Shown: piece by piece, positions 693 through 44,052 of the stretch | Layout: each line of letters begins with the position of its first letter | Position numbering within the stretch: position 1 is the stretch's first letter | Translations under genes and position numbers: made by a program | The notes under the pieces: model-generated | Told to the model about the DNA's origin: nothing | The model's database searches: none | Seen by the model: the letters and a program-made list of their open reading frames with translations, nothing else | Virus record (IMG/VR): IMGVR_UViG_3300018080_000004 | Length of the DNA: 64,000 nt | DNA from: a virus | Direction: 5' to 3' (one strand)

Positions 693-1307
693 ATGGGGTA
701 CAGGTCGAAGCACAATACGGATTACTTCACCAGGATCGACACGGCCGAAAAAGCGTATTGGCTGGGATTCATCACGGCCGACGGGTGCGTGACTACTCTG
801 AACAGGGTGAAGATCATGCTCTCCGACGGCGACGTGGCCCACCTGCGAAAATTCCAACGGGCCGTCGGTTCGACGAACAAGATTGACAGGGGCCGTCCCG
901 GAACGGCTGCCGTCGTCTTGAAGGCGGAGGAGACCGTGGCCGCGCTCAGGTCCTTCGGGATCGGGGAACGGAAAACGTGCAGAGTGGGACCGGCGAATCT
1001 TCCGGAGAGGCTTGTCCCCCACTTCTGGCGCGGTGTCTTCGACGGGGACGGCTGTCTGAACTATGACAAGGCAAACCGGCGCTGGAGGCTCGCCCTAACG
1101 GGAAACAGGCCGCTTGTGGATGCCTTTGCACGGTACGTCCAGGAACTTTGCGGCTACTCCAGCAAGGTGTTTTACCAGGGGAGGGCGTGGAGGTTCTTCG
1201 TGAGCAGGAAGGTGGCCGTCAAAGCGGTCATACGAAAGCTTTACGAAGGAGCCGAACCCGTCCTCGACCGGAAGATGGACAGCGCCCACTGCATTCTGTC
1301 GTGGTGA
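693..1307 (+). CDS. Free-standing double-motif LAGLIDADG homing endonuclease
   Basis: Motifs AYWLGFITADG and HFWRGVFDGDG. Confidence 0.88.
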   Translation: MGYRSKHNTDYFTRIDTAEKAYWLGFITADGCVTTLNRVKIMLSDGDVAHLRKFQRAVGSTNKIDRGRPGTAAVVLKAEETVAALRSFGIGERKTCRVGPANLPERLVPHFWRGVFDGDGCLNYDKANRRWRLALTGNRPLVDAFARYVQELCGYSSKVFYQGRAWRFFVSRKVAVKAVIRKLYEGAEPVLDRKMDSAHCILSW

Positions 1308-1346
1308 AATGTCCCGAAGCGTTGCTGTCAAAGCGACGCCCCACCC

Positions 1347-1385
1347 GAACCCCGTCGGCCCGGACCGGCGGGGTTCCTATTTTCT
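1347..1385 (+). terminator. Probable intrinsic terminator
   Basis: GAACCCCGTCGG-loop-CCGGCGGGGTTC followed by CTATTTTCT. Confidence 0.55.
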
Positions 1386-1395
1386 CAATTTTCCG

Positions 1396-1424
1396 TTGAC
1401 AAGCGGGACACGATAGCCTAAGAT
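1396..1424 (+). promoter_or_regulatory. Sigma70-type promoter of the conserved-spacer family; probably gives a leaderless UDG mRNA
   Basis: TTGACA-17 bp (AGCGGGACACGATAGCC)-TAAGAT; ATG 6 nt after -10, no SD. Confidence 0.7.
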
Positions 1425-1430
1425 ACGGCC

Positions 1431-2276
1431 ATGAACTTCACCGTATGCCGCTATAAGGTGCTTGGAGAGGCCCTCCAGAGGACGGCGATCTTCCCAGGTT
1501 TCGTCGCGCCGCGTGGAGAGCCCATCCAGAAATTTTTCACGCGCACCCGGCCAGAGCACGGCGTGGGCGAGTGGGCAGTCAGGCTCCACGATTTCGCCGA
1601 CGGATACCCGACCTTCCGGGAGACCTACGCCTACTGGTCCAAGTGCTCGGACTGCTCTCTCGCGGCGCAGGCCCACAAGCGCGTCTTCTACCGGGGTTCC
1701 CTGGACGCCGAAATCGTGCTCGTCGGCGAGGCGCCGGGCCAGGACGAGGACCGGGTGGGCGTTCCGTTCGTGGGACGTTCCGGTCTCTTTCTGGACCACC
1801 TGCTTGAGGCCGCCGGGTTCGATCCCGTCGAGGTCCTCATCGCCAACCCTGTCCTGTGCCGCCCGGTGGGGCCCTCCGGGAAGGACCGAAAGCCGACACC
1901 GACAGAGATCGCCGCGTGCGTCAAGCATCTGCGGCAGCTTCTCGACCTCGTGGCTCCGCGCTGGGTCGTGCTCATGGGGGCGACGGCGCGGGACACCTTC
2001 ACGGACGGCTCCCCGGCGTGGGAGAGCTACTTCTCCATCGGAATCCCTACCCGGTTCGCACTGATTCATCACCCTTCGTGGTATCTCCGGAGCGGGGGCA
2101 GGGAGGTAAAGGAGTACGGGAAGGCCCTCGCCCTCTTCTCCTTCCTCAAGAAGCGCCTGGACTCCGACCGTAAGCGCGTACGGCCCGTCACGGACTGGGG
2201 GAGGGTACTCTGGCCCGCTGTCGAGCGGGGAATCGCCCACTGCAAGGCTGACAAGGTTTTCAAGGGGGAGGCATGA
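1431..2276 (+). CDS. udg: Uracil-DNA glycosylase family 4 (Fe-S type)
   Basis: CSDC, LVGEAPGxxEDxxGxPFVGRSG, CRP, HHPS motifs. Confidence 0.9.
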   Translation: MNFTVCRYKVLGEALQRTAIFPGFVAPRGEPIQKFFTRTRPEHGVGEWAVRLHDFADGYPTFRETYAYWSKCSDCSLAAQAHKRVFYRGSLDAEIVLVGEAPGQDEDRVGVPFVGRSGLFLDHLLEAAGFDPVEVLIANPVLCRPVGPSGKDRKPTPTEIAACVKHLRQLLDLVAPRWVVLMGATARDTFTDGSPAWESYFSIGIPTRFALIHHPSWYLRSGGREVKEYGKALALFSFLKKRLDSDRKRVRPVTDWGRVLWPAVERGIAHCKADKVFKGEA

Positions 2277-9454: not shown

Positions 9455-9959
9455 CGTGGCGCTCTACTGCGACGGGTCGTGCCCGAATAACCGGAAGCCG
9501 AGCCGGGACAACCCGGCCTCCTGGGCTTTCGTGGCGGTTCGGCGCGTTGACATCTTCGACCACCGGGCCGGGCATGAGATCGCCAGGGCCTCCGGCCGGG
9601 TGATAACGGACCCGGACGCGAGGGGGTACGACGGGGCCGAGCACGGCTCGAACCAGACGGCCGAGCTGACGGCGGCCATTCGGGCCCTACAGTGGGCCCA
9701 GGTCAATCGGAAGGAGATCGGCCGAATCGCCCTGTTCACGGACTCGAAGTACGTCAAGAACCTCCTCCTGCGCCAGTGGAAGCACGACGACGAGGGGGAG
9801 ATGGAGAACAAGGCCCTCGTGCTCAAGGCGAGGGCCCTCCAGGACGACGTGGACACCAGAGTCCGCTGGGTCAAGGGGCACGTGGGGATTCATTGGAACG
9901 AGGAGGCCGACGACGCCGCCCACAGGGCCCTCCGGGGGGTCCGGAGCCTGGGGGGCTGA
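9444..9959 (+). CDS. rnhA: Ribonuclease HI
   Basis: YCDGSC, NQTAEL, TDSKYV, WVKGH, NEEAD. Confidence 0.92.
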   Translation: MVPNVALYCDGSCPNNRKPSRDNPASWAFVAVRRVDIFDHRAGHEIARASGRVITDPDARGYDGAEHGSNQTAELTAAIRALQWAQVNRKEIGRIALFTDSKYVKNLLLRQWKHDDEGEMENKALVLKARALQDDVDTRVRWVKGHVGIHWNEEADDAAHRALRGVRSLGG

Positions 9960-10132: not shown

Positions 10133-11131
10133 GTGGACAGGGAGAGTATCTACAAGCTGGCCTCCATCATGGGGGTCAAGGCCGGGAAGGGCCGGGGAGC
10201 TAACATTCTGATACAGTGCCCCCTCGCGCCGCACTCCGGCGGCCACGCCAGCGGGGAGGACAGCACGCCATCCTTCTCGATCCTTGTGGACGAGACCGGA
10301 CCCTCGGCCTGCCACTGCTTCGGGTGTGGGGTCCGGGGCACCCTCGTCTCGGTCCTGGCGAGAGCAGATAGGCAGTACGAGGGTTTCGACGAGGCCCTCG
10401 CCTTTGTCCGGCGCATCGAGAAGTATGACCTCGGTGCGGGGCTCGACCGGGCCCTTCACCACCGCCGGAAGAGGACCCAGAGGGACGAACCGTATGCGCG
10501 TACGCTTGCCCGCTTCGTGCGGGCCTGTCAGGTCCACGTGCCGGGCTATGCGCTGGAGCGCGGGCTCACGCGGGCGGAGATCGACCGATGGATGGTGGGG
10601 CTCGACGTGTTCGACTATCGGGCCACCTTCCCGGTCTGGGACCGTGGCGGGACCCTCATGGGCGTCATGGGCCGGACCGTTGTCGATGGGGTCGAGCCCA
10701 AGTACCTCGCCTACTTCGACTGGTCAACCGGGGAGCACTTCTACGGGGAGCACTCCCTGGACCTGACCATCGAGGAGGGGGTCCTCGTAGAGGGAACTCT
10801 CGACACGATCATCGCCCGGCGCTACCACCCGAACGTCCTTGGACTCATGGGTCTCCGGCTTACGCCGGAAAAGAGGACGAAGCTCAAGCGGTGGTTCGAC
10901 TCCGTTACGCTCCTCCTCGACGCCGACGAGGCCGGTATGTCCCAGGCCCTCTCCGAGGACGTTATGGCGATCAAAATCGGCGTGTGGCTCTCTCCCATCA
11001 CGCGCCTGTACGTGGCCGTGCTCCCTCCGGGCGAGGACCCGGCGAGCGCCCCAGACGCCATCCCAGAGGCTCTGAAAAATCGTGTCCTCTGGGACTCTCT
11101 TGGGCTTGACAAGCGGAAATTGATACGCTAA
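10133..11131 (+). CDS. dnaG: DNA primase (Zn-binding + Toprim)
   Basis: CP..H..S.SI..CHCFGCG zinc domain; VEGTLD, LDADEAG, EDP. Confidence 0.88.
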   Translation: MDRESIYKLASIMGVKAGKGRGANILIQCPLAPHSGGHASGEDSTPSFSILVDETGPSACHCFGCGVRGTLVSVLARADRQYEGFDEALAFVRRIEKYDLGAGLDRALHHRRKRTQRDEPYARTLARFVRACQVHVPGYALERGLTRAEIDRWMVGLDVFDYRATFPVWDRGGTLMGVMGRTVVDGVEPKYLAYFDWSTGEHFYGEHSLDLTIEEGVLVEGTLDTIIARRYHPNVLGLMGLRLTPEKRTKLKRWFDSVTLLLDADEAGMSQALSEDVMAIKIGVWLSPITRLYVAVLPPGEDPASAPDAIPEALKNRVLWDSLGLDKRKLIR

Positions 11132-11202: not shown

Positions 11203-12069
11203 ATGGGTTTCGCAAGTCGTGGCCTCGGCGAGGCCGACAAGGTTCCCGCGTCTTCGCGGGTCAAACCGTCCTTCGAGAAGCGCCTCTTCCTTCGGCCGGG
11301 GGACGAGGTGGACATCGTGCTCCTGGACGACATCTCGTTCAACATCTGGGAGCACGGCATGTTCCTCAAGGGCGACAAGCAGGCCAGCAAGATCAAGTGC
11401 ACGTGCCCGGACGGCTCGGCCGACGGCGATCCGAGGGCCTGCCGCATCTGTAACGCCATGCTCCGGCACGACCTCATCGGGCGCCAGTGGCGCGGCTTCC
11501 TCACCGTCGTGGACATGACGAAGCGCACCTGGAAGGGCAAGACCTACGAGCACGTGAAGAAGCTCCTCCCGCTCGACAAGAAGACGGCCATGATTCTGGA
11601 GAAGAAGCGGGAGAAGCGGAGCTCGCTCGTGGGGGCTCAGTTCCACCTGTACCGGACCGAGCAGACGGCCTCCTCGGTCGGGGACGACTGGGAGCTCCTC
11701 GACATCGACGACCCGAAGCGGCGGTTCAAGAACTCGCCCCAGATCGACCAGACCATCGAGTGGGAGAAGAAGAAGAACGGTACCATCCTCACGCGGGCGC
11801 AGGCCCTCGCGCTCTTCTGCTCTCCCTACGACTACGACACGGTGCTCGCTCCCGACAAGAAGAAGACGGCCTACTTCCTGGCCTACATGGGCATCGAAGA
11901 CCAGACCAGCGGCGACGAGGCCGAGGCGGAGTCCGGGACGACCGTGAACTACGGGGACCCCGACACGTCTCCGGACGAGGGCGTGGACGACACTCCGGCG
12001 CCGCCTCCCCGCAAGAAGGCGGCCAAGAAGAAGGGCCTCAAGAAGGGGCTCAAGAAGAAGGGCAAGTAG
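11203..12069 (+). CDS. Putative single-stranded DNA-binding protein (Zn-containing, gp32-like) with acidic then Lys-rich tail
   Basis: SD GGAGG; EH...C.C...C.IC pattern; position between primase and polymerase. Confidence 0.6.
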   Translation: MGFASRGLGEADKVPASSRVKPSFEKRLFLRPGDEVDIVLLDDISFNIWEHGMFLKGDKQASKIKCTCPDGSADGDPRACRICNAMLRHDLIGRQWRGFLTVVDMTKRTWKGKTYEHVKKLLPLDKKTAMILEKKREKRSSLVGAQFHLYRTEQTASSVGDDWELLDIDDPKRRFKNSPQIDQTIEWEKKKNGTILTRAQALALFCSPYDYDTVLAPDKKKTAYFLAYMGIEDQTSGDEAEAESGTTVNYGDPDTSPDEGVDDTPAPPPRKKAAKKKGLKKGLKKKGK

Positions 12070-12076
12070 GCGATTC

Positions 12077-12210
12077 ACGGCGGTAGCTCAGTGGGAAGAG
12101 CGCCCCTCCGCCCTGGGTCGCGCAACCCAGGCGGGGCAGCCGGGCCGGTCGCGCAGGCCGGTCCGGCGGAGAGGGGGAGGTCGGAGGTTCGAGTCCTCCC
12201 CGCCGCGCCA
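12077..12210 (+). ncRNA. tRNA-like RNA with the anticodon loop replaced by two hairpins
   Basis: Acceptor ACGGCGG/CCGCCGC-G-CCA, D arm TAGCTCAGTGGGAAGAGC, T arm GGAGG-TTCGAGT-CCTCC; ~64-nt insert in the anticodon arm. Confidence 0.8.
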
Positions 12211-12212
12211 GC

Positions 12213-14426
12213 ATGTACGACGACGTGGACAAAATTCTGGGGTCGGAGTGGGTCGCGGTGGACACCGAGACCGACGACGACGACGCCATCCCGGCGTGCA
12301 AGAAGACCCTCCGGGGCGTCTCGCTCGCCTGGGGGAATCCGGAGCACCCTGTCGGGCGCTACTGGTCCTTCGAGGAGGACGCTTACGCCTGGAAGACGTT
12401 CAGGAAGCGCATCCTTGCCCCTCTCTTCGAGCGCGAGGAGGCGAAGCTCGCGTGGTGGAATTACAAGTTCGATGCCCAGGTCCTCGGAGCTCGCGGCCTC
12501 CACCCCAAGGGGGTCATCTACGACGGCATGCTCCTCTCCTACCTCATCGACGAGACCGAGCGGCACGCCCTCAAGGCGTGCGCGAAGCGCGACCTCGGAG
12601 TTACCACGGCCCTCACCTACCGGGAATCCCAGAGGGAGGTCGAGGCCATCTGGAAGCGCGGGCAGGCCAATATCAAGAGGATGGTGAACATCGCCTGGGC
12701 CCTCTACCGCGACCACCGGAAATCTTCCCAGGTCATCGAGAGCTTCATCGACCCCCGCTGGCCCTTGGCGAAGCAGGCGGCTTTTCGGCTTCCTCCAGGC
12801 ATGAAAAAGGCAGACGTGCTGGAGGCGGCCGACAAGTTCGTTCGGCCCAAGGTGGAGGCGGTCCACGAGGCGCGGCGCCGGGAGCTTTTCGAGACTTACG
12901 CCACGCACGACGCCGTGTGGACGCTCCAGCTCGTGTGGAAGTACCTCCAGGTGGTCCAGGAGGCGGACTTGGAGGGCCTGTTCCACGAGACGGAGGTCCC
13001 TGTCGTGGGTGTCATCGCCGACATCGAGACACGGGGCGTCCGGATGGACGTGGGGATTCTCCAGCAACTCAAGCAGGTGTACGGCGTGGAGGTCGAGAAG
13101 ATCAGGAAGGAGATCGCTGCCGAGTATCCCGACCTGAATCCCTCCTCTCCTGACCAGCTTCGGGCCATCTTCTGGGGTGAGATGGAGATTGAGCCGCCCC
13201 AGTGGGCTTTCACGAAGAAGAACAGGCGCAAGGGGAACCTGGACCCTGTGAAGTTCGCCTCGACGGACAAGAACGTCCTCTCATGGCTCATCGAGGAGCA
13301 CCAGAACCCCCTCGCCGAGAAGATCGTGCGGCTCCGGAAGATCGAGAAGATCAAGGGCACCTACATCGACGACCTTCTGGAGAGGGCCCTGGCGGACCCG
13401 GAGCACCGAATACACTGCTCCTTCAACCCGGTGGGGACCGTGAACGACCGCTGGAGCTCGGACAACCCCAACCTCCAGAACCAGCCGCGCCCCGGCACGA
13501 CGGAGGGGGCTATCGGGAGCGTCTACATCCTTCCGGGCACGAAGAAGGAGATCAAGGTGCCCTCGATCCGCCGGGCGTATATTCCGAAGGAGGGGTACAA
13601 GTTCCTCAACGCCGACTTTTCGCAGATCGAGCTCCGTTTCCTCGCCCACGTGACCGAAGACCCGGCCCTCCTCGCGGCGTACCGGACGTGGCGGTGCTAC
13701 TCGTGCGGGGCCGAGGGCGAGACGGACACGGCCATACACGTCTGCCCGTCGTGCTGGGAGGACGAGGTGGAGGCCAAGGGGCATGAGGAGATTGTCCACG
13801 GGTTCGTGTTGGGCGAGGACATCCACTGGCAGACCGCCGTGGCGACGGGCCTCGTGGACACGTACGGGCCGGTCGAAGGGCGCTACAAAGCCAAGTCTGT
13901 GAATTTCGGGCTCATATACGGGATGTACTACAAGCTTTTGGCGGCCATGATCGACGTGCCCCTCGACGTGGCCGAGGAGGTTCACACTCGTTTCTTCTTG
14001 AAGTATCGCGGGGTGCGCTCCTTCCATCACTGGGTGCGGAGGACCTTGGAGGAGCGGGGATGGTTCCGCCTGTTCAGCGGGCGCAGGCGCCACTTCACGA
14101 AGGAGTGGGACCTCTACCACAAGGGGGTCATCGACGACTTCCAGCTCGGAGCGGTGGTCCGAGAGGCCACGAACAGCATCATCCAGGGAGGGGCGGCCAT
14201 CCTCATGAAGCGGGTGGTGCGCGACCTGGGCCGGGCGTTCCGGAGCGGGGAGTTCGGGGACACCGGGATCGTCCTCCAGGTGCACGACGAGATTCTCGTC
14301 GAGTTCCCGGAGGAGCGCGAGGAACAGGTCCGGGGGAAGGTGGTGGACACCATGGAGCACGTCGCTCAACTCAAGGTGCCCATTGTCACGGACCCCCAGA
14401 TCAAAATGGCATGGTCAGCAAAGTGA
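12213..14426 (+). CDS. polA: DNA polymerase family A (3'-5' exo + polymerase, no 5' nuclease) with CxxC-CxxC insertion
   Basis: VAVDTET, NYKFD, YATHD, NPNLQNQP, ADFSQIELR, KSVNFGLIYG, QVHDE. Confidence 0.95.
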   Translation: MYDDVDKILGSEWVAVDTETDDDDAIPACKKTLRGVSLAWGNPEHPVGRYWSFEEDAYAWKTFRKRILAPLFEREEAKLAWWNYKFDAQVLGARGLHPKGVIYDGMLLSYLIDETERHALKACAKRDLGVTTALTYRESQREVEAIWKRGQANIKRMVNIAWALYRDHRKSSQVIESFIDPRWPLAKQAAFRLPPGMKKADVLEAADKFVRPKVEAVHEARRRELFETYATHDAVWTLQLVWKYLQVVQEADLEGLFHETEVPVVGVIADIETRGVRMDVGILQQLKQVYGVEVEKIRKEIAAEYPDLNPSSPDQLRAIFWGEMEIEPPQWAFTKKNRRKGNLDPVKFASTDKNVLSWLIEEHQNPLAEKIVRLRKIEKIKGTYIDDLLERALADPEHRIHCSFNPVGTVNDRWSSDNPNLQNQPRPGTTEGAIGSVYILPGTKKEIKVPSIRRAYIPKEGYKFLNADFSQIELRFLAHVTEDPALLAAYRTWRCYSCGAEGETDTAIHVCPSCWEDEVEAKGHEEIVHGFVLGEDIHWQTAVATGLVDTYGPVEGRYKAKSVNFGLIYGMYYKLLAAMIDVPLDVAEEVHTRFFLKYRGVRSFHHWVRRTLEERGWFRLFSGRRRHFTKEWDLYHKGVIDDFQLGAVVREATNSIIQGGAAILMKRVVRDLGRAFRSGEFGDTGIVLQVHDEILVEFPEEREEQVRGKVVDTMEHVAQLKVPIVTDPQIKMAWSAK

Positions 14427-20575: not shown

Positions 20576-21340
20576 ATGGGCCCACTATCTGAGAGTGCAA
20601 TCCGGAAGCTCTCCCACGGGCAGATACGGGTACAGATAGAGAAGCTCGCTTCCGACATCCACGCCAATAACCTCGCCCTCGGCGGCCTCATCCTGCGCGT
20701 GCGGGAGGAGGTCCTCTGGAAGAAGTGGGGGACGAGGACTTTCCAGGGCTTCGGCGACTGGTGCTGGGCCGTCCTCGGCTTCCGGGAGCGCAAGGCCGAG
20801 GAGCTCGCAAAAATATACACCACCCTCCAGGAGCTCCGGGTGTCGGGGGGCGTCAAGCAGGACCTTGTAGGGCTGGGGTGGACGAAGCTCCGGTTCATCT
20901 CTCGCGTGCTCGACGACGACAACGCCGGGGAGTGGCTCCAGAAAGCCCAGAACCTCTCGTCGAGGGCCCTCGAAGCCGAGGTCAGGATCGCCACCGGAAC
21001 GGAGACCCCGGACCCGCTCGCCGAGGGGGACGACAAGGCCAAGCGTACGCGCATACGCCTGGGGCTGGAGTTCGACGACCCCGACGACTACCGGTTCGTC
21101 GTGGACGCCATCGCCACCATCGAGCGCCGGACCGGCGAGCAGGCCAACGGCCGGATTATCAGCATGATGGCGACGGCCTATTTCGCCATGCACCTGCGCG
21201 ACGACGAGGGCGGCATGGCCGTCGAGGTGGAGCGGATGCTCCAGGCCATCGAGCGGGACTACGGGATCAGGCTCAAGATCATCGGGAAAGAGAAGCCCGC
21301 CAAGAAGGGCGGCAAGAAGAAGGGCGTAGCGAAGCGGTGA
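20576..21340 (+). CDS. Putative DNA-binding protein with Lys-rich tail
   Basis: Helical FGDWC...LGF..RKA..L..IY pattern common in phage DNA-binding proteins. Confidence 0.55.
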   Translation: MGPLSESAIRKLSHGQIRVQIEKLASDIHANNLALGGLILRVREEVLWKKWGTRTFQGFGDWCWAVLGFRERKAEELAKIYTTLQELRVSGGVKQDLVGLGWTKLRFISRVLDDDNAGEWLQKAQNLSSRALEAEVRIATGTETPDPLAEGDDKAKRTRIRLGLEFDDPDDYRFVVDAIATIERRTGEQANGRIISMMATAYFAMHLRDDEGGMAVEVERMLQAIERDYGIRLKIIGKEKPAKKGGKKKGVAKR

Positions 21341-23249: not shown

Positions 23250-25218
23250 GGAGCAGCTCGAAGCGGTCTTCCTGGACATCGAGAAGGGAAGCGACCGCCT
23301 CTTCTCCCAGCTAACCCCCATCCAGCGGGACTGGTTTATCCGACTGTTCGAGGGCCTTTCCGACGGCGACGAGGCCATGCTGGAGGCCCTCTACGCCCAG
23401 GACTACGACCATATCCCGGTGCCCCCGGAGGTCTTCTTCACCGAGCCCGACTACCTCGGCCACATGGGGAAGAACCTTTACAAGGCGTGGTGGCCGCACG
23501 TGCTCAACATCTGCGACCCCCAGCGGAACGTCTCCGAGGTGATCTTCACGGGGGCCATCGGGTTCGGCAAGTCGTTCGTAGCGAACGCCCTCATCCTCCC
23601 CTACAAAATTTATTGGCTCTCGTGCCTCAAGAATCCGGCCCGGTACTTCGGCCTCGCCGATAACACGAAGATAGTCTTCGGGGTGTACGCCATCACGAAG
23701 GACCATGCCGAGGAGATCGGGTTCTACGACCTCCGAGATCAGGCCATCGACCAGAGCCCCTACTTCCGCTATGCCTTTCCAAGGGTCCCGAACGACGGGA
23801 ACTCCCTCGTATTCGACAAGGGCATCCGGGTCCTCGTGGGCTCGAAGGAGCTCCACGCCATCGGGCACAACCTCTTCGCTATCTCCATGGACGAGCTCAA
23901 CTTCTACGAGCAGGGGAAGGGGACGAAGCGCAAGGCCCACGACCTCGTGGCGGCCGTCTCCAGGCGCACCGAGTCCCGTTTCCGCACCGAGTCCGGCGTG
24001 GTGGCGGGGTTCGTGGTGCTCATCTCCTCGAAGCGAACCGAGACGGACTACCTGGAGGCCCGGCTCCGGAAGGTCAAAAAGCTCCCTGGAGTGTACGTCG
24101 TGGATGCGGCCTTCTGGGACTTCGACGAGAAGACGATCTATTCGGGCATGAAGTTCCGGGTCCAGCTCGGCGACGAGTTCCGGGATTCCAAGCTCCTCGA
24201 CGAGGTGGAGTTCGACGCGGACGGAGTGGAGGTCCTCGACATCCGGGAGATCGACAAAGAAGACGACACTGCCGAGGTGGTCCCCGTCCCTGTCGAGCAT
24301 TACAAGGCGTTCGTCGAGGACCTCGACGGCTCCATCCGGGACATCGCGGGCCGCAGCACGCGGGGGTTCACCCCCTTCTTCGGGAACAAGCAGCTCGTTC
24401 ATGACATGGTGGACGCCTCCCTCCCGGCGGCGTTCGACGCCGAGCGCATCCCCATCTTCGTCCAGGACAGTCGGCAGGTCATCGAGGCGTTCAACGTCAA
24501 GCGCCTGTGCCGGGTGCACATGAACCGATGGAAGCCCACCCGGCACGCCTCGGCGCCCCGGTACATCCATATCGACCTCGCCAAGAACAAGGACGCGGCC
24601 GGGATTTCCATGCTCCACCCGTCGAGCCACTTCATCACTAAGGAGGAGGACGACGAGGGGCGCCCCCGCGAAGAGGACGGCGTGCCCATCATCACGGTGG
24701 TCAAGGAGCTGGAGGTAGACTTCGCGCTGGCAATCACCGCCGGGCCGAGGGGGGAGGAAATAGACTTCGAGAAAATCCGGAAGTTCATCATCTTCTTGCG
24801 GAATATCGGCTTCTGGGTTCGCCGGGTGACCTACGACTCCTGGGAGTCCGTCGATTCGATTCAACTGCTCCGGGGCGCGAAGTTCAACGCGGACGTGCAG
24901 TCGGTGGACCGCACGGCCATCCCCTACAAGACCCTTCGCCGGGCCCTGGCGGAGAGGCGGATCAAAGCCCCTCCGAACGAGCTCCTCCGGATGGAGCTCA
25001 TCGGCCTGGAGCACGACGTGGAGGCCGATAAGGTGGACCACAGGGCGGGGGAGTCGAAGGACGTGGCAGACGCTTTGTGTGGGGCGGCCTACGGGTGCCT
25101 CACGGACAAGATCAAGCCGGGTGACGTGCCTCCGGAGCACCGGGGCGGGGGCGACTCGACAAGGGCCTCGAAGTACGACAAGTACCTCGACCAGCTACAG
25201 GGGGTTGCCAAGAGATGA
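23203..25218 (+). CDS. terL: Terminase large subunit
   Basis: TGAIGFGKS Walker A, SMDE Walker B, IHIDLA, TYDSW, VDH...SKDVADA nuclease motifs. Confidence 0.9.
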   Translation: MQHPKREKIATAPLTEEQLEAVFLDIEKGSDRLFSQLTPIQRDWFIRLFEGLSDGDEAMLEALYAQDYDHIPVPPEVFFTEPDYLGHMGKNLYKAWWPHVLNICDPQRNVSEVIFTGAIGFGKSFVANALILPYKIYWLSCLKNPARYFGLADNTKIVFGVYAITKDHAEEIGFYDLRDQAIDQSPYFRYAFPRVPNDGNSLVFDKGIRVLVGSKELHAIGHNLFAISMDELNFYEQGKGTKRKAHDLVAAVSRRTESRFRTESGVVAGFVVLISSKRTETDYLEARLRKVKKLPGVYVVDAAFWDFDEKTIYSGMKFRVQLGDEFRDSKLLDEVEFDADGVEVLDIREIDKEDDTAEVVPVPVEHYKAFVEDLDGSIRDIAGRSTRGFTPFFGNKQLVHDMVDASLPAAFDAERIPIFVQDSRQVIEAFNVKRLCRVHMNRWKPTRHASAPRYIHIDLAKNKDAAGISMLHPSSHFITKEEDDEGRPREEDGVPIITVVKELEVDFALAITAGPRGEEIDFEKIRKFIIFLRNIGFWVRRVTYDSWESVDSIQLLRGAKFNADVQSVDRTAIPYKTLRRALAERRIKAPPNELLRMELIGLEHDVEADKVDHRAGESKDVADALCGAAYGCLTDKIKPGDVPPEHRGGGDSTRASKYDKYLDQLQGVAKR

Positions 25219-28202
25219 GAGCAGCCGACCTACTCGAAATGGTGATGTTTCCGTGGTCCAACCTCGCCCGCATCCAGGGCCTCACGCGGCGCCCGGAGAT
25301 GGGGCGCAGCTACCCGATGCCCCAGCCCAGGGACAAGGCCCGCTCCAGGGACCCCATCGAGCGGGGCTCACGGTCCGGCGACTGGGTGGACCAGATCATC
25401 GGCACCCAGCGGCAGTACACGCGGCTGGAGCTCTACGCCATCTACCGCGAGATGGACATGGACCCTCTCATCACGTCGGTTCTGGACGCCTACGGCGAGG
25501 ACGCCACCCAGCGGGATTTCGAGAACGGGCGCACCGTCTGGCCGACGGCCAGGAACGGCGACGTGAAGAAGATCATTCTGCGGTGCCTCGACCGCATGCA
25601 AGTCGAGGACGTGGCCTTCCCCATCGTCCGAGCCACCTGCAAGATGGGGGACCAGTTCGAGCGCGTGGTGGCGGCCAAGAACGCGGGCATCCTCCACATT
25701 CGGGGCTACGATCCGTGGGACGTGGCCCGGATCGAGGACGAGGACGGCCGCCTGGAGGCGTTCTCCCCGTGCGACGCCGAGGGGCGCCCTACGAGGGTGC
25801 AGGACAACGCCGTTCCGTTCTACAAGGTCCTCCATTTCCGGCTCCGGGGGCAGAAGCGGAACGACATCTATGGGTCGTCGCTCCTTTGGGGGAGCCGCGA
25901 GAAGTGGAGGCAGCTCCAGCTCATCGAGGACCAGATCGTCCTCCAGAGGCTCCTCCGGCGCCCGGACCGGCTCCTAATCCTCATGGACGTGGGCGGGATG
26001 GCCCTCGCGGAAGCCTATGAGGCGTGCGTGGCCCCGGATTCCTGGATCACAACGGAAGACGGCGTACAGCATGCCGATACGGTGTGGGCCAGGGTGGAGG
26101 AGGGGGAAAACGTCCTCGTCCGGTCCGTTCGTGGGTGGGAGACCATCACCAAGGCCCGAAAGGTGGCGAAGGAGACTTCCCGGTGGACGTTCGAGCGCGG
26201 CGTGATGCTGGACGCAAGCGGGGATCACCGCGTCGCCATCTGGACCCCGGAGCAGGGGATCGACTGGAAGCGGCTCGAACACCTGGAGCCGGGTGACGAC
26301 GTGGTGGTGGCCGACGAGCCGGATGAGGCGTTCGTGCCCGACGACGACCTCGCTTACCTCGTGGGTCTCTTCGTCGGTGATGGTCATTGGCAGCGCAGGA
26401 ATCAGACGGACTACTCCGTCTTCATGCTCGACGCTCACGAACGGGCGGAGGGCTACGCCGAGATTGCCAGGATTGTCGATGAGATCGACCCGGATGGCTG
26501 GACGCGGGGGTGGTCGCAAGGACGCCTGTGCGTCAAGAGTCCTGTCCTGACCAGGGCGCTCGCGGAGGCGGGGTTCTCTCCCGGAGCAAAGACCGGGAAA
26601 ATCCCGGCCCACGACCGCTGGCTCATGGCGGGGGGAATGAACGGTATCCTGTCCTACGTTCAGGGCCTTATGGACGCCGAGGGGCACGGAGGGAAGGATT
26701 GCGTTTCAATTCGCATGCGCGACCGTCTTCCCCTGGAGTACGCCCACCGCGCCCTCTGGCGTGTCGGGATTCACAGCACTTTGGAGGAGTACGTTGCCCA
26801 GGGCAGCCCCGTCTTCATGCTGACAATCTCCGGGAAGGATGCCGACCGCTATCTGGTGCAAGTGGGCTTCCGGCTGCCGTGCAAGCAGGGAAACAAGACA
26901 CCGGCGAACAAGGATCGTCAAGGGACGCCGGAGTCGGCTCGTTTCGTCTGTGAGATGATCGAGGCCGGGGTGCCTCCCATGATGCTCGCGGCGGCATTCG
27001 ACGTACCCCGCTCGCGTATCTACCAACTCAAGTGCGGCCAGAAGCTCCTGACCTGGACGCGCCTTGCCAAGGGAGTGAAGCTCCTTCTCTTCGGAGCTCC
27101 TATCGCCGGGGGTGCGGTCTCTGTGGAGGCGATGGAAATCTGCAAGAAGTACGGGCCGATGGAGGGCTTCTCCACGGCCAAGTTCGTCGGAAGCGAAGCT
27201 CTCGGCGTGCAGACCCTCATCGACTTCACCGTCGAGGGCGGCGAGTCCTTCGTGGCGAATAACATCCTCACCCACAACTGCAAGGAGTGGGAAGATCGCA
27301 TCTACAAGGAGCACAACGTGGACCCGGTGTCCGGCCTCTTCACGAGCCAGGGGATGCCCCTCCACGAGGCGCGGGACCTCATCCTGCCCATCGGCCAGGA
27401 CAATCAGACCCGCATCGAGAACCTTCCGGCGACCCAGGGGAACGACCTCTTCCGCGACTACGAGATCATCCTGGGCCGCCTCCTGGGCGGCCTGAGAATC
27501 CCGAAGGGCTATCTGGGCTTCGAGGGCCAGTACGAGCCGAACATGAGCCTGGGGAAGCAGGACGTTCGGTTCGCCAAGACGGCCACGCGCATCCAGCGGG
27601 CCTTTCTCGTCGAGCTCGTCCGGGCGTGCATGATCGACCTCGCTTTCCACAACCTGGACCCCTTCGACGAGGAGAACGCTTTCGAGCTCCACATGAGCCC
27701 CGTGAGCGCGTTCGCCGAGATCGAGCGGGCTGAGCTGCTCCAGATGCGCGTGGACCTCATGGACCGGCTCTCGCGCCTGGGACAGGACATGCAGTTCAAC
27801 CCGGACGTGTGGACCACCTACGTCCTGGAGGAGGTGGGGCGTCTCCCGAAGGACATGGTGGAGAAGCTCCGGTCCGGGAGCAAGGAAGCGGCCACGGAGG
27901 CCGTTGAGGCGATCAGGGAGGACCCCAAGGCCCTCGCCGGGCTGACTCTCATCATGGAGGGGACGCCCTCGGTGGGAACCGGAGGGGTGGTCAACACCAT
28001 GAAGGGCGGCCGGGAAGCGGCCCAGAAGGAGCTCAAGGAGGCTGTCGAGGGGCTGGCGAGCGCCGAAGACCTGAAAGCCTGGGAGAACCTCAAGCCCATC
28101 GCTGCCGGTGCCAACATGGTGCGGGGCGAGGAGCTCAAGCGGGCGCAGAGGCGCCTCCAGGCGATCCGGGGCCTCGCCCGTGTCCCGGCGGTGAGCGCAT
28201 GA
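25215..28202 (+). CDS. Portal protein (T4 gp20-like) interrupted by an intein
   Basis: YREMDMDPLI..LD, VLHFR, YGSSLL, RRPDRL..MDVG, LLGGLRIPKGYLG, QDVRFA; follows TerL. Confidence 0.88.
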   Translation: MRAADLLEMVMFPWSNLARIQGLTRRPEMGRSYPMPQPRDKARSRDPIERGSRSGDWVDQIIGTQRQYTRLELYAIYREMDMDPLITSVLDAYGEDATQRDFENGRTVWPTARNGDVKKIILRCLDRMQVEDVAFPIVRATCKMGDQFERVVAAKNAGILHIRGYDPWDVARIEDEDGRLEAFSPCDAEGRPTRVQDNAVPFYKVLHFRLRGQKRNDIYGSSLLWGSREKWRQLQLIEDQIVLQRLLRRPDRLLILMDVGGMALAEAYEACVAPDSWITTEDGVQHADTVWARVEEGENVLVRSVRGWETITKARKVAKETSRWTFERGVMLDASGDHRVAIWTPEQGIDWKRLEHLEPGDDVVVADEPDEAFVPDDDLAYLVGLFVGDGHWQRRNQTDYSVFMLDAHERAEGYAEIARIVDEIDPDGWTRGWSQGRLCVKSPVLTRALAEAGFSPGAKTGKIPAHDRWLMAGGMNGILSYVQGLMDAEGHGGKDCVSIRMRDRLPLEYAHRALWRVGIHSTLEEYVAQGSPVFMLTISGKDADRYLVQVGFRLPCKQGNKTPANKDRQGTPESARFVCEMIEAGVPPMMLAAAFDVPRSRIYQLKCGQKLLTWTRLAKGVKLLLFGAPIAGGAVSVEAMEICKKYGPMEGFSTAKFVGSEALGVQTLIDFTVEGGESFVANNILTHNCKEWEDRIYKEHNVDPVSGLFTSQGMPLHEARDLILPIGQDNQTRIENLPATQGNDLFRDYEIILGRLLGGLRIPKGYLGFEGQYEPNMSLGKQDVRFAKTATRIQRAFLVELVRACMIDLAFHNLDPFDEENAFELHMSPVSAFAEIERAELLQMRVDLMDRLSRLGQDMQFNPDVWTTYVLEEVGRLPKDMVEKLRSGSKEAATEAVEAIREDPKALAGLTLIMEGTPSVGTGGVVNTMKGGREAAQKELKEAVEGLASAEDLKAWENLKPIAAGANMVRGEELKRAQRRLQAIRGLARVPAVSA
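26025..27278 (+). mobile_element. Intein (418 aa) with LAGLIDADG homing endonuclease, in the portal
   Basis: N-terminal CVAPDSWI, block B SGDH, YLVGLFVGDG and YVQGLMDAEG, C-terminal DFTV..ESFVANNILTHN|C. Confidence 0.92.
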
Positions 28203-31805: not shown

Positions 31806-31836
31806 CCCTCCCCTCATCGGGCACCAGTGGCGACCG

Positions 31837-31869
31837 GGGGGCGGCCGAAAGGTCGCCCCCCATCTTTTT
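31837..31869 (+). terminator. Intrinsic terminator
   Basis: GGGGGCGGCC-GAAA-GGTCGCCCCC then CATCTTTTT. Confidence 0.75.
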
Positions 31870-31878
31870 CCCCCCGCG

Positions 31879-31896
31879 ACTGTCGGTAGCGACAGT
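31879..31896. repeat. 18-bp palindrome ACTGTCGGTAGCGACAGT upstream of parB (candidate parS/operator)
   Basis: Other copies at 47307 (GTAT centre), 62810, 62889 and 63766. Confidence 0.7.
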
Positions 31897-31986
31897 GCGA
31901 AAATTCCTGTATTTTCTGCTTGCAATCGTAACATAATACGGTACACTCTTGGATGTATCCTCGTGAGTCAAGCACAGGAGGTAGTC

Positions 31987-33249
31987 ATGGGAAAGAAAAA
32001 GGGCGTCAAAAAGGGCGTTCGCAAGGGCGCCGGGACGGCGGCCCGGAGCACGCCGCCCAAGGAGCGCAGGCTGGGCGCGTCGTATCTCGCCACGGCCTCG
32101 CTCAAGGAAGCCCAGGACCTCAAGCTCAGGGACGTGGACAAGGCGTCCGAGGAGTTCCTGGAGCTCGTCGCTTCCATCCGGCAGCACGGCTTCTACGACC
32201 CGATCCTCGTGACGGAGCGGAACGGGGACATCCTCGTGGTGGACGGCTACAACCGGCTGGCCGCCGCCAAGGAGGTGGGGCTCAAGGAGGTTCCCATCAC
32301 CCACGTCCAGGGGTCGCGGGAGGACCTCGTGCTCGCGGCGTTCGACCTCTCCACGCGGCGGATCAACATGACCCCGATGACGGAGGCCCGCGCCGTGGCC
32401 CGTGCCATGGAGGCCCTGGGCACCAAGACCGCCAAAGAGGTGGCAAAGCGCATGGGGCGCTCGGAGCGGTGGGTCTCGATCCACACGCAGCTCCTCGCCC
32501 TTCCGAAGGACCTCCAGAAGGGCCTCGACGGGGGCGACACGGACATCACGGTGGGCAAGTGCCACGAGCTGCTCAGGGTGCACCCGGAGGACCGGGGCCG
32601 CTTCATCGGCAAGCTCAGGGAGCTCACCGAGCCTTTCTTCCGCGCCCACATCGAGCACGCCGTCAAGAACGGCACCGCCCGGTGGGCCGACGGCCGGAAG
32701 GAGCCCAGGAAGCCGAGGGAGGACAAGAAGACGCCGAGGGAGCAGGCGGACAAGCACAAGCGCACCCCGCAGACGGCCGTGGAGGGGGCGCGGGGACCGG
32801 AGGTCGTGGTGTCGTCGGAGCCCGTTCTGGAGGGGCGCCCTGTCGCGGAGGTCCAGCGGGCGATCCGGAAGGTCGAGGGCTCCCTCTCGAAGTACCAGGA
32901 GAAGAGGGCCAAGGCGGAGACGGATGCGGGGGTGAGGGGCAAGAAGAAGAAGCTCAAGGGAAAACAGCTCGCCGAGTTCGTGGCGGCCGAGGTCGCCAAG
33001 TGGGACGAGAAGAATTCCGGTACGATCATCTTCCTGCGGGGGCAGGTCGCCGGGCTTCTCTACTCCATCAATCTCGATCCGGGCGCCCCTTCTCTCGTTG
33101 CCGCCCTGGCGGAGTGGTGCAAGGCGAACGGCATCGGCAAGCCCAAGACCACGAAGGTGGGGGGAGGCAAGAAGAAGGCCGCGAGGGGAGGCAAGAAGAA
33201 GGCCGCGAGGGGCGGCAAGCGGCCCACCAAGAAGACGGCCGGAAAGTAG
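31987..33249 (+). CDS. parB: ParB/Spo0J-family protein with Lys-rich termini
   Basis: LVASIRQHGFYDPILV, VVDGYNRLAAA, HTH AKRMGRSERWVS. Confidence 0.85.
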   Translation: MGKKKGVKKGVRKGAGTAARSTPPKERRLGASYLATASLKEAQDLKLRDVDKASEEFLELVASIRQHGFYDPILVTERNGDILVVDGYNRLAAAKEVGLKEVPITHVQGSREDLVLAAFDLSTRRINMTPMTEARAVARAMEALGTKTAKEVAKRMGRSERWVSIHTQLLALPKDLQKGLDGGDTDITVGKCHELLRVHPEDRGRFIGKLRELTEPFFRAHIEHAVKNGTARWADGRKEPRKPREDKKTPREQADKHKRTPQTAVEGARGPEVVVSSEPVLEGRPVAEVQRAIRKVEGSLSKYQEKRAKAETDAGVRGKKKKLKGKQLAEFVAAEVAKWDEKNSGTIIFLRGQVAGLLYSINLDPGAPSLVAALAEWCKANGIGKPKTTKVGGGKKKAARGGKKKAARGGKRPTKKTAGK

Positions 33250-33253
33250 GGGC

Positions 33254-33353
33254 TTGCGTCCGAGCGCGGGACAGTGTAGGCTGAGCTCGGATTCACCGAG
33301 GGGGAATCCACCTGTGCGGGGGAGCGGTGCCCACAGCACCGCTCTTCTTTTTT
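33254..33353 (+). ncRNA. Candidate ~65-nt small RNA with its own promoter and terminator, partly antisense to tRNA-Leu
   Basis: TTGCGT-17 bp-TAGGCT; terminator GAGCGGTGC-CCACA-GCACCGCTC-TTCTTTTTT; 33296-33313 is the exact reverse complement of 43999-44016. Confidence 0.45.
33322..33353 (+). terminator. Intrinsic terminator
   Basis: 9-bp stem followed by TTCTTTTTT. Confidence 0.8.
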
Positions 33354-33365
33354 GCTATTTTCGGA

Positions 33366-33394
33366 TGGACACGCGGATCGTGATGCGGTATAAT
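33366..33394 (+). promoter_or_regulatory. Conserved-spacer sigma70 promoter for the PPDK operon
   Basis: TGGACA-CGCGGATCGTGATGCGG-TATAAT. Confidence 0.7.
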
Positions 33395-33422
33395 CGGGCT
33401 GTCGTCATTGGAGTAAGTCCGA

Positions 33423-35450
33423 GTGCTTACGAAGCAGCATATCGTGGGGCTGCGGAAACGACTGGCAGCCCTCCAAGCGGCCGGGGTGAGCGCGGCGCCC
33501 ACGATCATCTCCGGTCCGGATGTCCAGTTCAAGAAGAAGGGCGTCTTCCGGGTCTATGGTGTCGCCGGGGTGTGGGAGTACGCCGGGATGCCACGAGGTC
33601 TTCGGAAGGAGATCAAGGAGCGCGGGCTGGAGTGGTGTCTCGTGCAGCGCCTCCCAGGTTCCCCGGCCGAGGCGCACGAGTGGGTCAGCGTGAGCACGCG
33701 GGACCCCAGGACTGGGGATAGCACGCCGGTGGGTGAGTTCCACGACGGGGACGACTGGGTGCATCTGTCCGAATACGGCGGAGACTCGGACCGTCTCGCG
33801 GAGTTCTGCCGGGTGGTGGAGGGGGTTCTCAAGGACGTGGCCCGTGTCGAGGCGGTCCGCCAGGGCCCGGACGACGAGTTTCAGGTCCTCTCCGTCTTTC
33901 CCCTTGTCCGGACTGTGGGCGCGGCGCTCTCGTTCGTCCGGGACCTCGTGGACGAGGGCATCCTGACCCAGGAGGAGGCCCTCCTTCGTATTTCCCCCAG
34001 CGACGTGGCCTCCATGGAGACGCCCACGCTGGACGCCATTCCGGAGGACGCCATCGCCAAGGGGACCCCGGCGGCGCCTGGGGTTGCTATCGGGCCGGTG
34101 GCGTGGGGGGCGGATGAGGCGGTCCAACACTACGCCGAGCACGGGGACAGGGCCGTCCTCGTGGTCAAGATGACCTCCCCGGAGGACGTGTCAGCTCTTC
34201 GCTACTGCTCCGGGATCGTGACGGAACGCGGGGGCTTGACCTCCCATGCGGCCGTGGTGGCTCGTGGGATGGGGCTCCCGTGCATCGTCTCCGCCAAGGG
34301 CATCGGCAGCCGACGTGGGGAGAACCTCACCATCTCCATGGACGGATCGACTGGCCTCCTTTTCGAGGGGGCGGTCCCTCTGGCGGCCCTTGCCGGAACG
34401 GCCATCCTCGACGAGGTGCTCCGCTGGGTCGAGCCCGGCATGCGGGTGTACGCCAACGTGGACACCCCGGACGCCACGGAAGAGGCCGTAAGCGCGTACG
34501 GTGCCCAGGGGGTGGGGCTCTGCCGGACCGAACACCAGTTCTTCGGGAAGGACAGGATCGAGCCTTTCCGGCGCATGCTCATGGCCGACACGGACGCCCT
34601 CCGGAAGGCCGCCCTCATTCGGCTCCTGGAGTTTCAGCGCGAAGACTTCCAGGGCATCTTCGAGGGGGCGGACGGTGCGCCCGTTACAATCCGGCTTCTG
34701 GACGCGCCGCTTCACGAGTTCTGGGGGGAGGGGGCAGCGGCCGACCTGGGAATTCCGAACACGGCGGTGCAACGCTACACCGAGGCCCTTCGGGAGTCGA
34801 ACCCCATGCTGGGGCACCGGGGCTGCCGCCTGGGGATCACCGCACCGGAAGTCTACGCCATGCAGACCCAGGCCGTCGCCGAGGCGGCCAAGAAGGTCGA
34901 AGGGGCGCGGCCCAGGATCATGGTCCCCCTTGTGGCGTCGGTGCGCGAGCTCATCACTCTCCGGGCCCTCGTGGAGGACATCCTGGAGAAGGTCCTCGGC
35001 AAGAGGGCTGCCAAGGCGGTCCCCATCGGGACCATGATCGAGACTCCCAGGGCGTGCCTCACGGCCGATGAGATCGCCCACCACGCCGACTTCATGTCCT
35101 TCGGGACAAATGACCTGACCCAGATGGTCTGGGGCTTCTCCCGCGACGACGCGGAGAAGTGGATGCCACGATACTTGGACCTTCGGGTCCTCCAGGCCGA
35201 CCCGTTCGCCACGCTCGATGTCCGGGGGGTGGGGCGTCTTATCCGACTGGGCATCGAGCTGGCACGGGCGGTTCGTCCGAAGATCGAGATCGGCGTGTGC
35301 GGCGAGCACGCGGCCGACCCCAGGTCCATCACGGCCTTCGCCCACCTGGGGGTGGACTACATCTCCTGCTCCCCCTCACGCCTCAAGATGGCGAGGCTCG
35401 CGGCGGCGCAGGTAGCGGTTCGAGGGAAGGTAACATGCGGCTCCGTCTGA
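33423..35450 (+). CDS. ppdK: Pyruvate phosphate dikinase-like PEP-utilising enzyme with a shortened/degenerate N-terminal nucleotide-binding domain
   Basis: GGLTSHAAVVARG, GLCRTEH, IRLLD, ESNPMLGHRGCR, GTMIETPRA, SFGTNDLTQ, GVCGEH. Confidence 0.88.
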   Translation: MLTKQHIVGLRKRLAALQAAGVSAAPTIISGPDVQFKKKGVFRVYGVAGVWEYAGMPRGLRKEIKERGLEWCLVQRLPGSPAEAHEWVSVSTRDPRTGDSTPVGEFHDGDDWVHLSEYGGDSDRLAEFCRVVEGVLKDVARVEAVRQGPDDEFQVLSVFPLVRTVGAALSFVRDLVDEGILTQEEALLRISPSDVASMETPTLDAIPEDAIAKGTPAAPGVAIGPVAWGADEAVQHYAEHGDRAVLVVKMTSPEDVSALRYCSGIVTERGGLTSHAAVVARGMGLPCIVSAKGIGSRRGENLTISMDGSTGLLFEGAVPLAALAGTAILDEVLRWVEPGMRVYANVDTPDATEEAVSAYGAQGVGLCRTEHQFFGKDRIEPFRRMLMADTDALRKAALIRLLEFQREDFQGIFEGADGAPVTIRLLDAPLHEFWGEGAAADLGIPNTAVQRYTEALRESNPMLGHRGCRLGITAPEVYAMQTQAVAEAAKKVEGARPRIMVPLVASVRELITLRALVEDILEKVLGKRAAKAVPIGTMIETPRACLTADEIAHHADFMSFGTNDLTQMVWGFSRDDAEKWMPRYLDLRVLQADPFATLDVRGVGRLIRLGIELARAVRPKIEIGVCGEHAADPRSITAFAHLGVDYISCSPSRLKMARLAAAQVAVRGKVTCGSV

Positions 35451-36399: not shown

Positions 36400-36421
36400 C
36401 ATCGCGCACGGTATTTTCTGC

Positions 36422-36450
36422 TTGAAAAGTGGACCGTGATACCCTATAAT
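36422..36450 (+). promoter_or_regulatory. Early promoter cassette 1
   Basis: TTGAAA-AGTGGACCGTGATACCC-TATAAT. Confidence 0.88.
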
Positions 36451-36492
36451 ATAATTAGACGGGAGACGTGAGAGAGACGAAAGGAGCGCGAG

Positions 36493-40590: not shown

Positions 40591-40610
40591 TAATTTTTTG
40601 GGAATTTCGC

Positions 40611-40639
40611 TTGAAAAGTGGACCGTGATACCCTATAAT
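40611..40639 (+). promoter_or_regulatory. Early promoter cassette 3
   Basis: TTGAAA-AGTGGACCGTGATACCC-TATAAT, identical to 36422. Confidence 0.88.
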
Positions 40640-40687
40640 ATAATTGGAGACTGGAAACGAAAACGACGACGACGAAAGGAGGAAGCC

Positions 40688-43075: not shown

Positions 43076-43082
43076 TTTCCGC

Positions 43083-43111
43083 TTGAAAAGTGGACCGTGA
43101 TACGCCATAAT
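43083..43111 (+). promoter_or_regulatory. Early promoter cassette 4
   Basis: TTGAAA-AGTGGACCGTGATACGC-CATAAT. Confidence 0.85.
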
Positions 43112-43150
43112 AAGAGTGGAGACAAGAGGCCAACACGAAAGGGGGACACG

Positions 43151-43681
43151 ATGAGCGAGCCCATCCGGATCGAAGACACCGACGCCGTGGGGCGGCTGGA
43201 GGCGCGGATCGCCAAGCTGGAGGCCCTCCAGGAGCAGTACAAGGCGGTAAACAAGGCCATCCGCAAGCACGCCAAGAAGGGGGCCGAGGCCCAGGTGGCG
43301 GCCCTCGTCGAGCTGGGGCTCTCCGAGGGGACGGCCCGGAAGACGCTGGAGCCCGACTTCTGCGGGCGCGTGGGCATCCCCGCCTACGAGCTCCAGAACA
43401 ACGGGGCGAACATCCGGCGCCTCAAGACCCAGGTGAAGCGGGCGCAGGCCCTCCAGGCCGCCGCCCCCTCCGAGGCCGAGGGCGACACCGGCCGGTTCGA
43501 GGACGCCCCCCAGGACAACCGGGTGCGCGTCTTCTTCCCCGGCAAGCCCGACGCCTCGGTCCGCAGGGACCTCAAGTCCAGCGGCTTCCGCTGGACGCCT
43601 TCCCTGGGGTGCTGGCAGGCGTACCGGAACGCCTACACCGTCCAGGTCGCCAAGCGCCACGCGGGCGCGGCCGAAGGATAG
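43151..43681 (+). CDS. DUF3560-like protein (C-terminal part)
   Basis: YELQNNGANIRRLK...DNRVRVFFPGKPD...LKSSGFRWTPS..CWQ. Confidence 0.7.
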   Translation: MSEPIRIEDTDAVGRLEARIAKLEALQEQYKAVNKAIRKHAKKGAEAQVAALVELGLSEGTARKTLEPDFCGRVGIPAYELQNNGANIRRLKTQVKRAQALQAAAPSEAEGDTGRFEDAPQDNRVRVFFPGKPDASVRRDLKSSGFRWTPSLGCWQAYRNAYTVQVAKRHAGAAEG

Positions 43682-43961: not shown

Positions 43962-44052
43962 GCCGGGCTGGCGCAAAGGCAGACGCAGCCTCTTAGAAAG
44001 GTGGATTCCCCCTCGGAATCAGTTACGGGTTCGAGTCCCGTGCCCGGCACCA
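43962..44052 (+). tRNA. tRNA-Leu (anticodon UAG, reads CUA)
   Basis: GCCGGGC/GCCCGGC acceptor, A73, encoded CCA, loop CTTAGAA, long variable arm, GGTTCGAGTCC. Confidence 0.9.

Follow-up and report, generated by a model that had tools for sequence, protein, structure and literature searches.

The transcription unit of a parB-family gene in an uncultured 131-kb phage ends in a conserved hairpin that is the exact complement, over 18 nucleotides, of part of the phage's own tRNA-Leu(UAG). The analysis covered a 64-kb stretch of this genome, referred to here as the window. We favour, at a probability of about 0.4, the reading that the hairpin belongs to a conserved RNA module of the parB 3′ end, that it derives from an inverted tRNA-Leu-type variable arm, and that it would act in cis or as a protein site. 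The hairpin is kept in the one related phage compared, and its pairing with the tRNA shrinks there.

Organization of the parB 3′ end

The parB-family gene (31987..33249, + strand) is monocistronic and encodes a 420-aa protein with the Pfam domains ParB_N, HTH_ParB and KorB; this 420-aa form is database protein P0001. The unit is preceded by a terminator (31836-31870) and a promoter, TTGCAA-16-TACACT, both of which are kept in the relative described below. Between the two lies a palindrome, GCGACTGTCGGTAGCGACAGT (~31877-31897), present at the same site in the relative (L015 ~9887-9907) and found again at ~62810, 62889 and 63766, in a non-coding region near 62.8-63.8 kb. It is likely a ParB/KorB-type operator or centromere site. 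At the 3′ end of parB, a 24-nt tandem duplication (33161-33209) gives the protein a lysine-rich tail in which GGKKKAAR is repeated, and the length of this tail varies across three ParB homologs.

Downstream of the unit is a gene for a PEP-utilising (PPDK-like) protein. Its promoter, TGGACA-17-TATAAT (33366-33394, + strand), matches 11/12 consensus positions and is conserved in the relative; it stands outside the element, downstream of the terminator, and sets the element's downstream limit. The naming of the flanking genes as parB and ppdK in the original prediction holds, with the ParB-family protein ending at 33249 and the PPDK-like protein encoded at 33423-35450. Elsewhere in the window, blocks of up to ~37 nt are repeated around TTGAAA-17-TATAAT (or CATAAT) promoters (36420-36456, 40608-40645 and 43080-43103). 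The copies at 36420 and 40609 are near-identical over ~37 nt and the copy at 43080 over ~24 nt. Their CGTGAT..TATAAT portion also occurs in the PPDK promoter, and the copy at 43083 is located upstream of an ORF (43097-43681) that precedes the tRNA-Leu gene.

After the parB stop (33249), ~70 nt are predicted to fold as two hairpins. For hairpin A (33260..33288, + strand), a hairpin is predicted in both phages, but its sequence is not conserved and the relative forms a different one. Hairpin B (33289..33309, + strand) consists in MFE folds of GGAUUC, a bulged A, CC, a GAGG loop, GG and GAAUCC; it is the sole occurrence of GGATTC-N9-GAATCC in the window. The strong terminator proposed for this unit is real: a 13-pair, GC-rich stem-loop (33318-33348) is followed by TTTTTT, forming an intrinsic terminator (33318..33353) on the + strand only, with the U tract on the transcribed strand. 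The + strand is predicted to fold much more stably than shuffled sequences (z -3.6), unlike the minus strand (z -1.6), which also lacks a U tract. Thus any RNA made here would be the + strand, which is antisense to the tRNA. Rfam searches returned no tRNA, T-box or relevant family on either strand over 32900-33700 at E<=10, and no T-box or other relevant family at the parB tail when the whole window was searched at the gathering score.

A promoter-like sequence immediately ahead of the hairpins had also been proposed, TTGCGT-17-TAGGCT (33254..33282, + strand), and the evidence on it is mixed. Its hexamers and 17-nt spacing are conserved, the relative having TTGCGC-17-TACACT with a spacer identical at 8/17 positions, but it matches only 6/12 positions of the sigma-70 consensus. 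This is below the scan threshold, against 10-11/12 for the phage's clear promoters. The sequence occurs once in the window, and the parB promoter has similar hexamers, but with a spacer of 16 nt, not 17. A transcription start ~7 nt past TAGGCT would coincide with base 1 of hairpin B. Alternatively, in predicted folds TTGCG may form a 4-bp closing helix with GUGC.

Conservation in a relative

A relative was sought with ParB, PPDK and terminase profile scans of IMG/VR and JGI metagenomes, and with DNA patterns. One genome was returned, IMG/VR contig 3300028840_002524 (G001, 116 kb), whose sequence at the locus does not differ from Ga0180437_10000166. Protein identity to the window is 65% for ParB, 71% for the PPDK-like protein and 82% for the terminase. 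At four-fold degenerate sites, identity is only 44-45% in parB and in the PPDK-like gene, so that neutral positions have reached saturation. Over the same distance, hairpin B and its linker UGUGCGGGG are identical at 31/33 positions, plus one 3-nt indel. Within hairpin B alone the figure is 20/21, and the single C-to-U change retains the pair as U·G. Given the saturation of neutral sites, this degree of identity indicates that the element is under selection and functional.

The conservation is uneven along the tail. The GAGG loop and the bulge of hairpin B are unchanged in the relative, whereas the terminator loop is altered at 5/5 positions; the stem below it persists, a compensatory exchange (A-U to G-C) having replaced one of its pairs. 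The altered loop is the reverse complement of its counterpart (CCACA vs TGTGG; 33327-33339 vs L015 ~11329-11341) on a retained stem, which looks like a hairpin-loop inversion. On this two-genome comparison, hairpin B is shown to be constrained in both sequence and shape, with purifying selection extending to the linker. The tail had been described as a discrete non-coding unit, and this description is borne out by the retention of hairpin B, linker and terminator across saturating divergence.

Other searches yielded less. By its proteins, a 35.5-kb contig is closer to the window (ParB P0002, 74%; terminase P0006, 88%). Blastn against GenBank phages gave no close relative and ParB tblastn gave matches of ~30% identity only. 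The 18-mer had no match in IMG/VR, where the DNA arm pattern picked out, among relatives, just contig 3300028840_002524; in the contigs of seven more distant terminase relatives (<=59%) there was neither a tRNA nor a ParB homolog. These genomes also differ in an intein. In the window, a T4-type portal gene (25215-28202) carries one with a LAGLIDADG homing-endonuclease domain (Pfam Portal_T4, LAGLIDADG_3, Intein_splicing). The 116-kb relative's portal is without the insert, its tblastn segments joining directly, and P0006 (1082 aa) instead has an intein in the terminase.

Complementarity to tRNA-Leu and its fate in the relative

The only tRNA that ARAGORN finds in the window is a class II tRNA-Leu with anticodon TAG (UAG) and a long variable arm (43962..44052, + strand; Rfam tRNA 33.3 bits). 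It is missed by whole-window Rfam at the gathering score, the 33.3 bits coming from a local search. Its anticodon stem is weak, with one A·G mismatch and one G·U, and is likewise weak in the ortholog.

Read directly, CCGAGGGGGAATCCACCT (33296..33313, + strand) is the exact reverse complement of tRNA-Leu 43999-44016, as originally predicted. The predicted extension is also present: GATT at 33290-33293 prolongs the match to 44017-44020 past a 2-nt insertion, for a total of 22 matched nt with one 2-nt gap. These four nucleotides are not independent evidence, because both partners are hairpins. The tRNA part had been described as the 3′ anticodon stem plus variable arm, and it indeed comprises positions 38-59 (43999-44020), taking in all of the anticodon stem's 3′ strand and the variable-arm hairpin in full. 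Hairpin B is in turn the reverse complement of a tRNA-Leu-type variable arm. The stretch therefore has the extended complementarity to an RNA encoded elsewhere (18 exact pairs plus 4) that is expected of a trans-encoded antisense RNA. The predicted dimer gain of the window element with the window tRNA-Leu is -17.1 kcal/mol, net of unfolding both RNAs. A scan of whole-tRNA duplex energies ranked the element first by a small margin; as large internal loops inflated the background, these energies were replaced by contiguous-helix scores, in which the window helix reaches 48 vs a background maximum of 36.

This complementarity suggests a serious, though less probable, rival to our favoured reading: a ~65-nt RNA, or the parB 3′ UTR, would bind the exposed loop of the tRNA-Leu variable arm through its GAGG-containing loop. 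Candidate targets are the phage's tRNA, mature or as a precursor, and any host tRNA-Leu whose arm is longer. The resulting 18-22 bp duplex would unfold the arm and the anticodon stem, and so lower or time the supply of a CUA-decoding tRNA or mark it for cleavage. The fuller proposition, in which a phage sRNA or mRNA 3′ tail kisses the arm loop and then unfolds arm and anticodon stem as a regulator, timer or cleavage guide acting on the tRNA body, we consider doubtful. In favour of pairing are the 18+4 nt of complementarity (P ~0.001) and the net gain of -17 kcal/mol predicted after both RNAs are unfolded. Hairpin B is also conserved in loop and stem sequence beyond structural need, with a perfect partner conserved in the same genome. 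The layout resembles that of an sRNA: the hexamers and the distance between them are conserved, transcription would start at the hairpin, and a terminator closes the unit. The parB promoter offers similar hexamers (TTGCAA-16-TACACT). On the other hand, the promoter match is just 6/12, a mature tRNA is tightly folded and modified, no host tRNA with a longer arm was present in the genomes sampled, and we found no described sRNA that pairs with a tRNA body.

The relative bears on this rival most directly. It keeps a tRNA-Leu(UAG) ortholog (L016:1501-1592), which has an A-to-G change in the variable arm and another in the anticodon stem; the latter is compensated inside the tRNA and not in the element. 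The relative's element in turn has a C-to-T change (C-to-U in the RNA) in hairpin B and a 3-nt ACC indel, which removes the anticodon-stem pairing. As a result, 18+4 Watson-Crick pairs in the window compare with an uninterrupted run of 14 in the relative, of which two are G·U, and 5 more beyond the bulge. The helix score there is 35, inside the chance background of its own genome (up to 39-41), so that the helix is no outlier.

The predicted dimer gains lead in the same direction. The window tRNA gains -17.1 kcal/mol with the window element and -9.4 kcal/mol with that of the relative, whereas the relative's tRNA gains -10.5 kcal/mol with the window element and -5.0 kcal/mol with its own. The relative's cognate pair is thus the least stable of the four combinations, which speaks against co-adaptation. 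Some features of the comparison do favour pairing: both substitutions in the relative keep a wobble pair, for which the chance expectation is one in four, and the 9-nt GC-rich core, GAGGGGGAA vs UUCCCCCUC, is intact.

Co-variation of element and tRNA in related genomes had been proposed as a check. Complementarity is partly lost, with zero compensatory changes between the two, although with one relative this test is not decisive; between the two genomes compared, co-variation is shown to be absent. The original idea of an antisense regulator of tRNA-Leu(UAG) therefore survives only in part: a + strand RNA would indeed be antisense, but its pairing shrinks in the relative and no compensation accompanies the loss.

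Assessment of chance

The match is real, and a chance origin is unlikely. Exact 18-nt inverted matches occur twice in the 64 kb, and the second is explained by a family of palindromic CGTAAGCGCGTACG-type motifs (10491-10508 / 21040-21057, with further members at 2166, 34486, 48549, 62156 and 63434). All other exact runs between the tRNA and the window, in either orientation, are at most 10-11 nt long, and runs become ~threefold fewer per extra base. When the window was simulated 400 times with a third-order Markov model, most simulations had a longest run of 11-12 nt and none had one >16 nt. The run decay and the simulations each put the probability of a run of at least 18 nt at ~0.0005-0.001 for this tRNA anywhere in the window.

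We nevertheless consider the possibility, unlikely as it appears, that hairpin B is a conserved GC-rich hairpin of some other function and that its 18-mer is a coincidence picked post hoc. The original prediction had conceded that such an 18-mer is no great rarity, rightly so: ~0.2-0.5 are expected in 64 kb, counting either orientation, and there are three unrelated exact 16-nt inverted matches. In addition, GAGGGGGAA, the complement of the arm, is a frequent coding word, and the tRNA segment concerned has several further pairing sites in each of the two genomes. If the ancestor was without ACC, the ancestral match would have been just ~14-15 nt, with P 0.01-0.04. Against coincidence stand the low probability for this one tRNA and the fact that the match covers one complete hairpin in each of two rare, structured non-coding elements. 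What had been singled out as unexpected, a link between two such elements, is in fact unusual, as it joins the window's only tRNA to one of its few structured non-coding elements. A natural tRNA-Leu arm with the same length variant also exists, as described below.

Possible origin of the hairpin

Searching IMG/VR with the hairpin as a pattern brought up a single unrelated contig, a 44-kb viral sequence (L020). On its other strand lies a partial tRNA-Leu(CAA). The variable arm of this tRNA agrees at 20/21 positions with hairpin B read as its reverse complement, and the 2 extra nt are present as well. Hairpin B hence has the architecture of a natural tRNA-Leu arm. The tRNA-Leu(CAA)-like sequence (790-863, minus strand; Rfam 13.7 bits) has acceptor, D and anticodon arms and the long variable arm but no T arm, and it is abutted by a tyrosine integrase gene (863-1972, minus strand; Pfam E 3e-17). 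It is probably one half of an attachment site, and its position beside the integrase indicates that arms of this kind occur in attachment sites.

Comparison with the variable arms of host tRNA-Leu, which the original prediction had recommended, gave no match in the genomes sampled: the arm pattern hit no tRNA among 401 Pseudomonadota and 301 Planctomycetota genomes. The 18-mer occurs 14 times in GTDB representative genomes, vs an estimated ~17 expected by chance, and none of these occurrences is in a tRNA. Short blastn queries against phages gave no match. A decayed tRNA on the minus strand is ruled out, since ARAGORN sees only the tRNA at 43962 and Rfam at E<=10 none in 32900-33700; nor did either program find on that strand any tRNA-like sequence beyond the variable arm, such as an acceptor, D or T arm. 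We saw no likeness between hairpin B and a tRNA look-alike at 12077-12215.

The least probable of the alternatives, which we rate as quite improbable, is that GGATTC-N9-GAATCC serves as a double-stranded DNA site for a protein, whether as an operator or as an attachment core, relic or active, in common with a tRNA-Leu gene: the repeat is perfect and unique in the window, and the partial tRNA-Leu of L020 ends after such an arm beside a tyrosine integrase gene, but the arms are no better conserved than the 9-bp spacer between them, an uncommon pattern where a dimer binds, the repeat lies inside a transcribed tail 8 nt before the terminator, the 18-mer is in no tRNA of the GTDB representative genomes, and the relative's 116-kb contig (85% complete) has no tyrosine or serine recombinase (PF00589, PF00239). 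In the window, the element's neighbours are ParB and the PPDK-like enzyme. The earlier suggestion of a remnant of tRNA-linked recombination thus fares unevenly: a tRNA-linked remnant fits at least as well as an antisense RNA, but the recombinase is missing from the relative's contig.

Discussion

The reading we favour, a conserved module at the parB 3′ end, takes the stretch to be the structured end of the parB transcription unit, in which a ~70-nt tail with hairpins A and B would precede the strong terminator. The tail may be released, or made from the weak promoter, as a ~65-nt two-hairpin RNA. Hairpin B would be a class-II tRNA-Leu variable arm copied in inverted orientation, its stem unchanged and its loop complementary, and its complementarity to the phage tRNA-Leu(UAG) would follow from this. 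We infer that it was recruited from a fragment of a tRNA-Leu gene and is now kept for a sequence-specific job of its own, perhaps as a signal for 3′-end protection or processing, or as a site for a phage or host protein. The complementarity would then be inherited rather than maintained for pairing.

Two aspects of the comparison with the relative support the inherited complement. The changes in the element and those in the tRNA are independent of each other, and the terminator and flanking promoters are conserved while hairpin A is kept only as a structure. Several points weigh on the other side. The tighter sequence constraint on hairpin B than on the terminator would suit a partner that recognizes sequence, and the tRNA arm qualifies as one. 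Both substitutions stay G·U, and a 14+5 bp duplex with its GC-rich 9-nt core is possible in the relative. No tRNA-like sequence past the arm survives on the minus strand, and the comparison covers a single relative.

Either outcome would be informative. Phages carry tRNAs, and hosts attack tRNAs; regulation of a tRNA by an RNA that pairs with the tRNA body is, to our knowledge, undescribed. If hairpin B binds tRNA-Leu, the struggle over translation would gain a further level, in the form of a simple two-RNA system. If it does not, it would illustrate neatly how the sequence of a tRNA arm can be taken over as a conserved 3′-end element, and would caution that an exact 18-nt antisense match can persist through the separate conservation of each partner.

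Among known systems, bacterial small RNAs that derive from 3′ UTRs or share a terminator with an mRNA, such as CpxQ and SroC, offer one comparison. Like them, the element sits at the 3′ end of a coding unit and shares its intrinsic terminator, with one conserved seed hairpin followed by the terminator hairpin and possibly a weak internal promoter. Unlike them, its only strong complementarity found is to the body of a tRNA and not to an mRNA, and it is known from the sequence of two genomes. Temperate phages offer another comparison, as their attP cores are identical to segments of tRNA genes. The element likewise shares ~22-25 identical bp with an internal part of tRNA-Leu, variable arm included. 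However, it matches the phage's own tRNA, in inverted orientation, within a transcribed tail that is conserved together with its terminator, and no integrase was found in the relative's contig.

T-boxes sit in 5′ leaders, have a Stem I, a specifier loop and a T-box motif, and pair with the anticodon and the 3′ NCCA end of a tRNA. The element resembles them as an RNA upstream of an intrinsic terminator that could pair with a specific tRNA, but it is without Stem I, specifier loop and T-box motif. A T-box riboswitch was rejected as a candidate, with no Rfam match at E<=10 in 32900-33700 and none at the gathering score window-wide. Primer-binding sites of retroviruses and retrotransposons are 18 nt complementary to a tRNA, mostly to its 3′ end, and need a reverse transcriptase; the element is similarly an exact 18-nt tRNA complement in a viral genome, but its tRNA segment is internal. 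T-box leaders and primer-binding sites therefore have in common with it only the idea of tRNA pairing.

In the literature, we found no RNA shown to pair with a tRNA body, and the nearest case is sRNA2 of the Pseudomonas phage PAK_P3. In that RNA, 11 nt are repeated in the T-loop of eight host tRNAs, and ribosome binding has been proposed (PMC4933390). Like sRNA2, our element would be a small phage RNA of intergenic origin with a short stretch in common with tRNAs, but here the stretch is 18-22 nt long, antisense, and directed at the variable arm of a tRNA that the phage itself encodes. We conclude that the element is closest in layout to the 3′-UTR-derived small RNAs and, in its sequence relation, to the attachment cores within tRNA genes.
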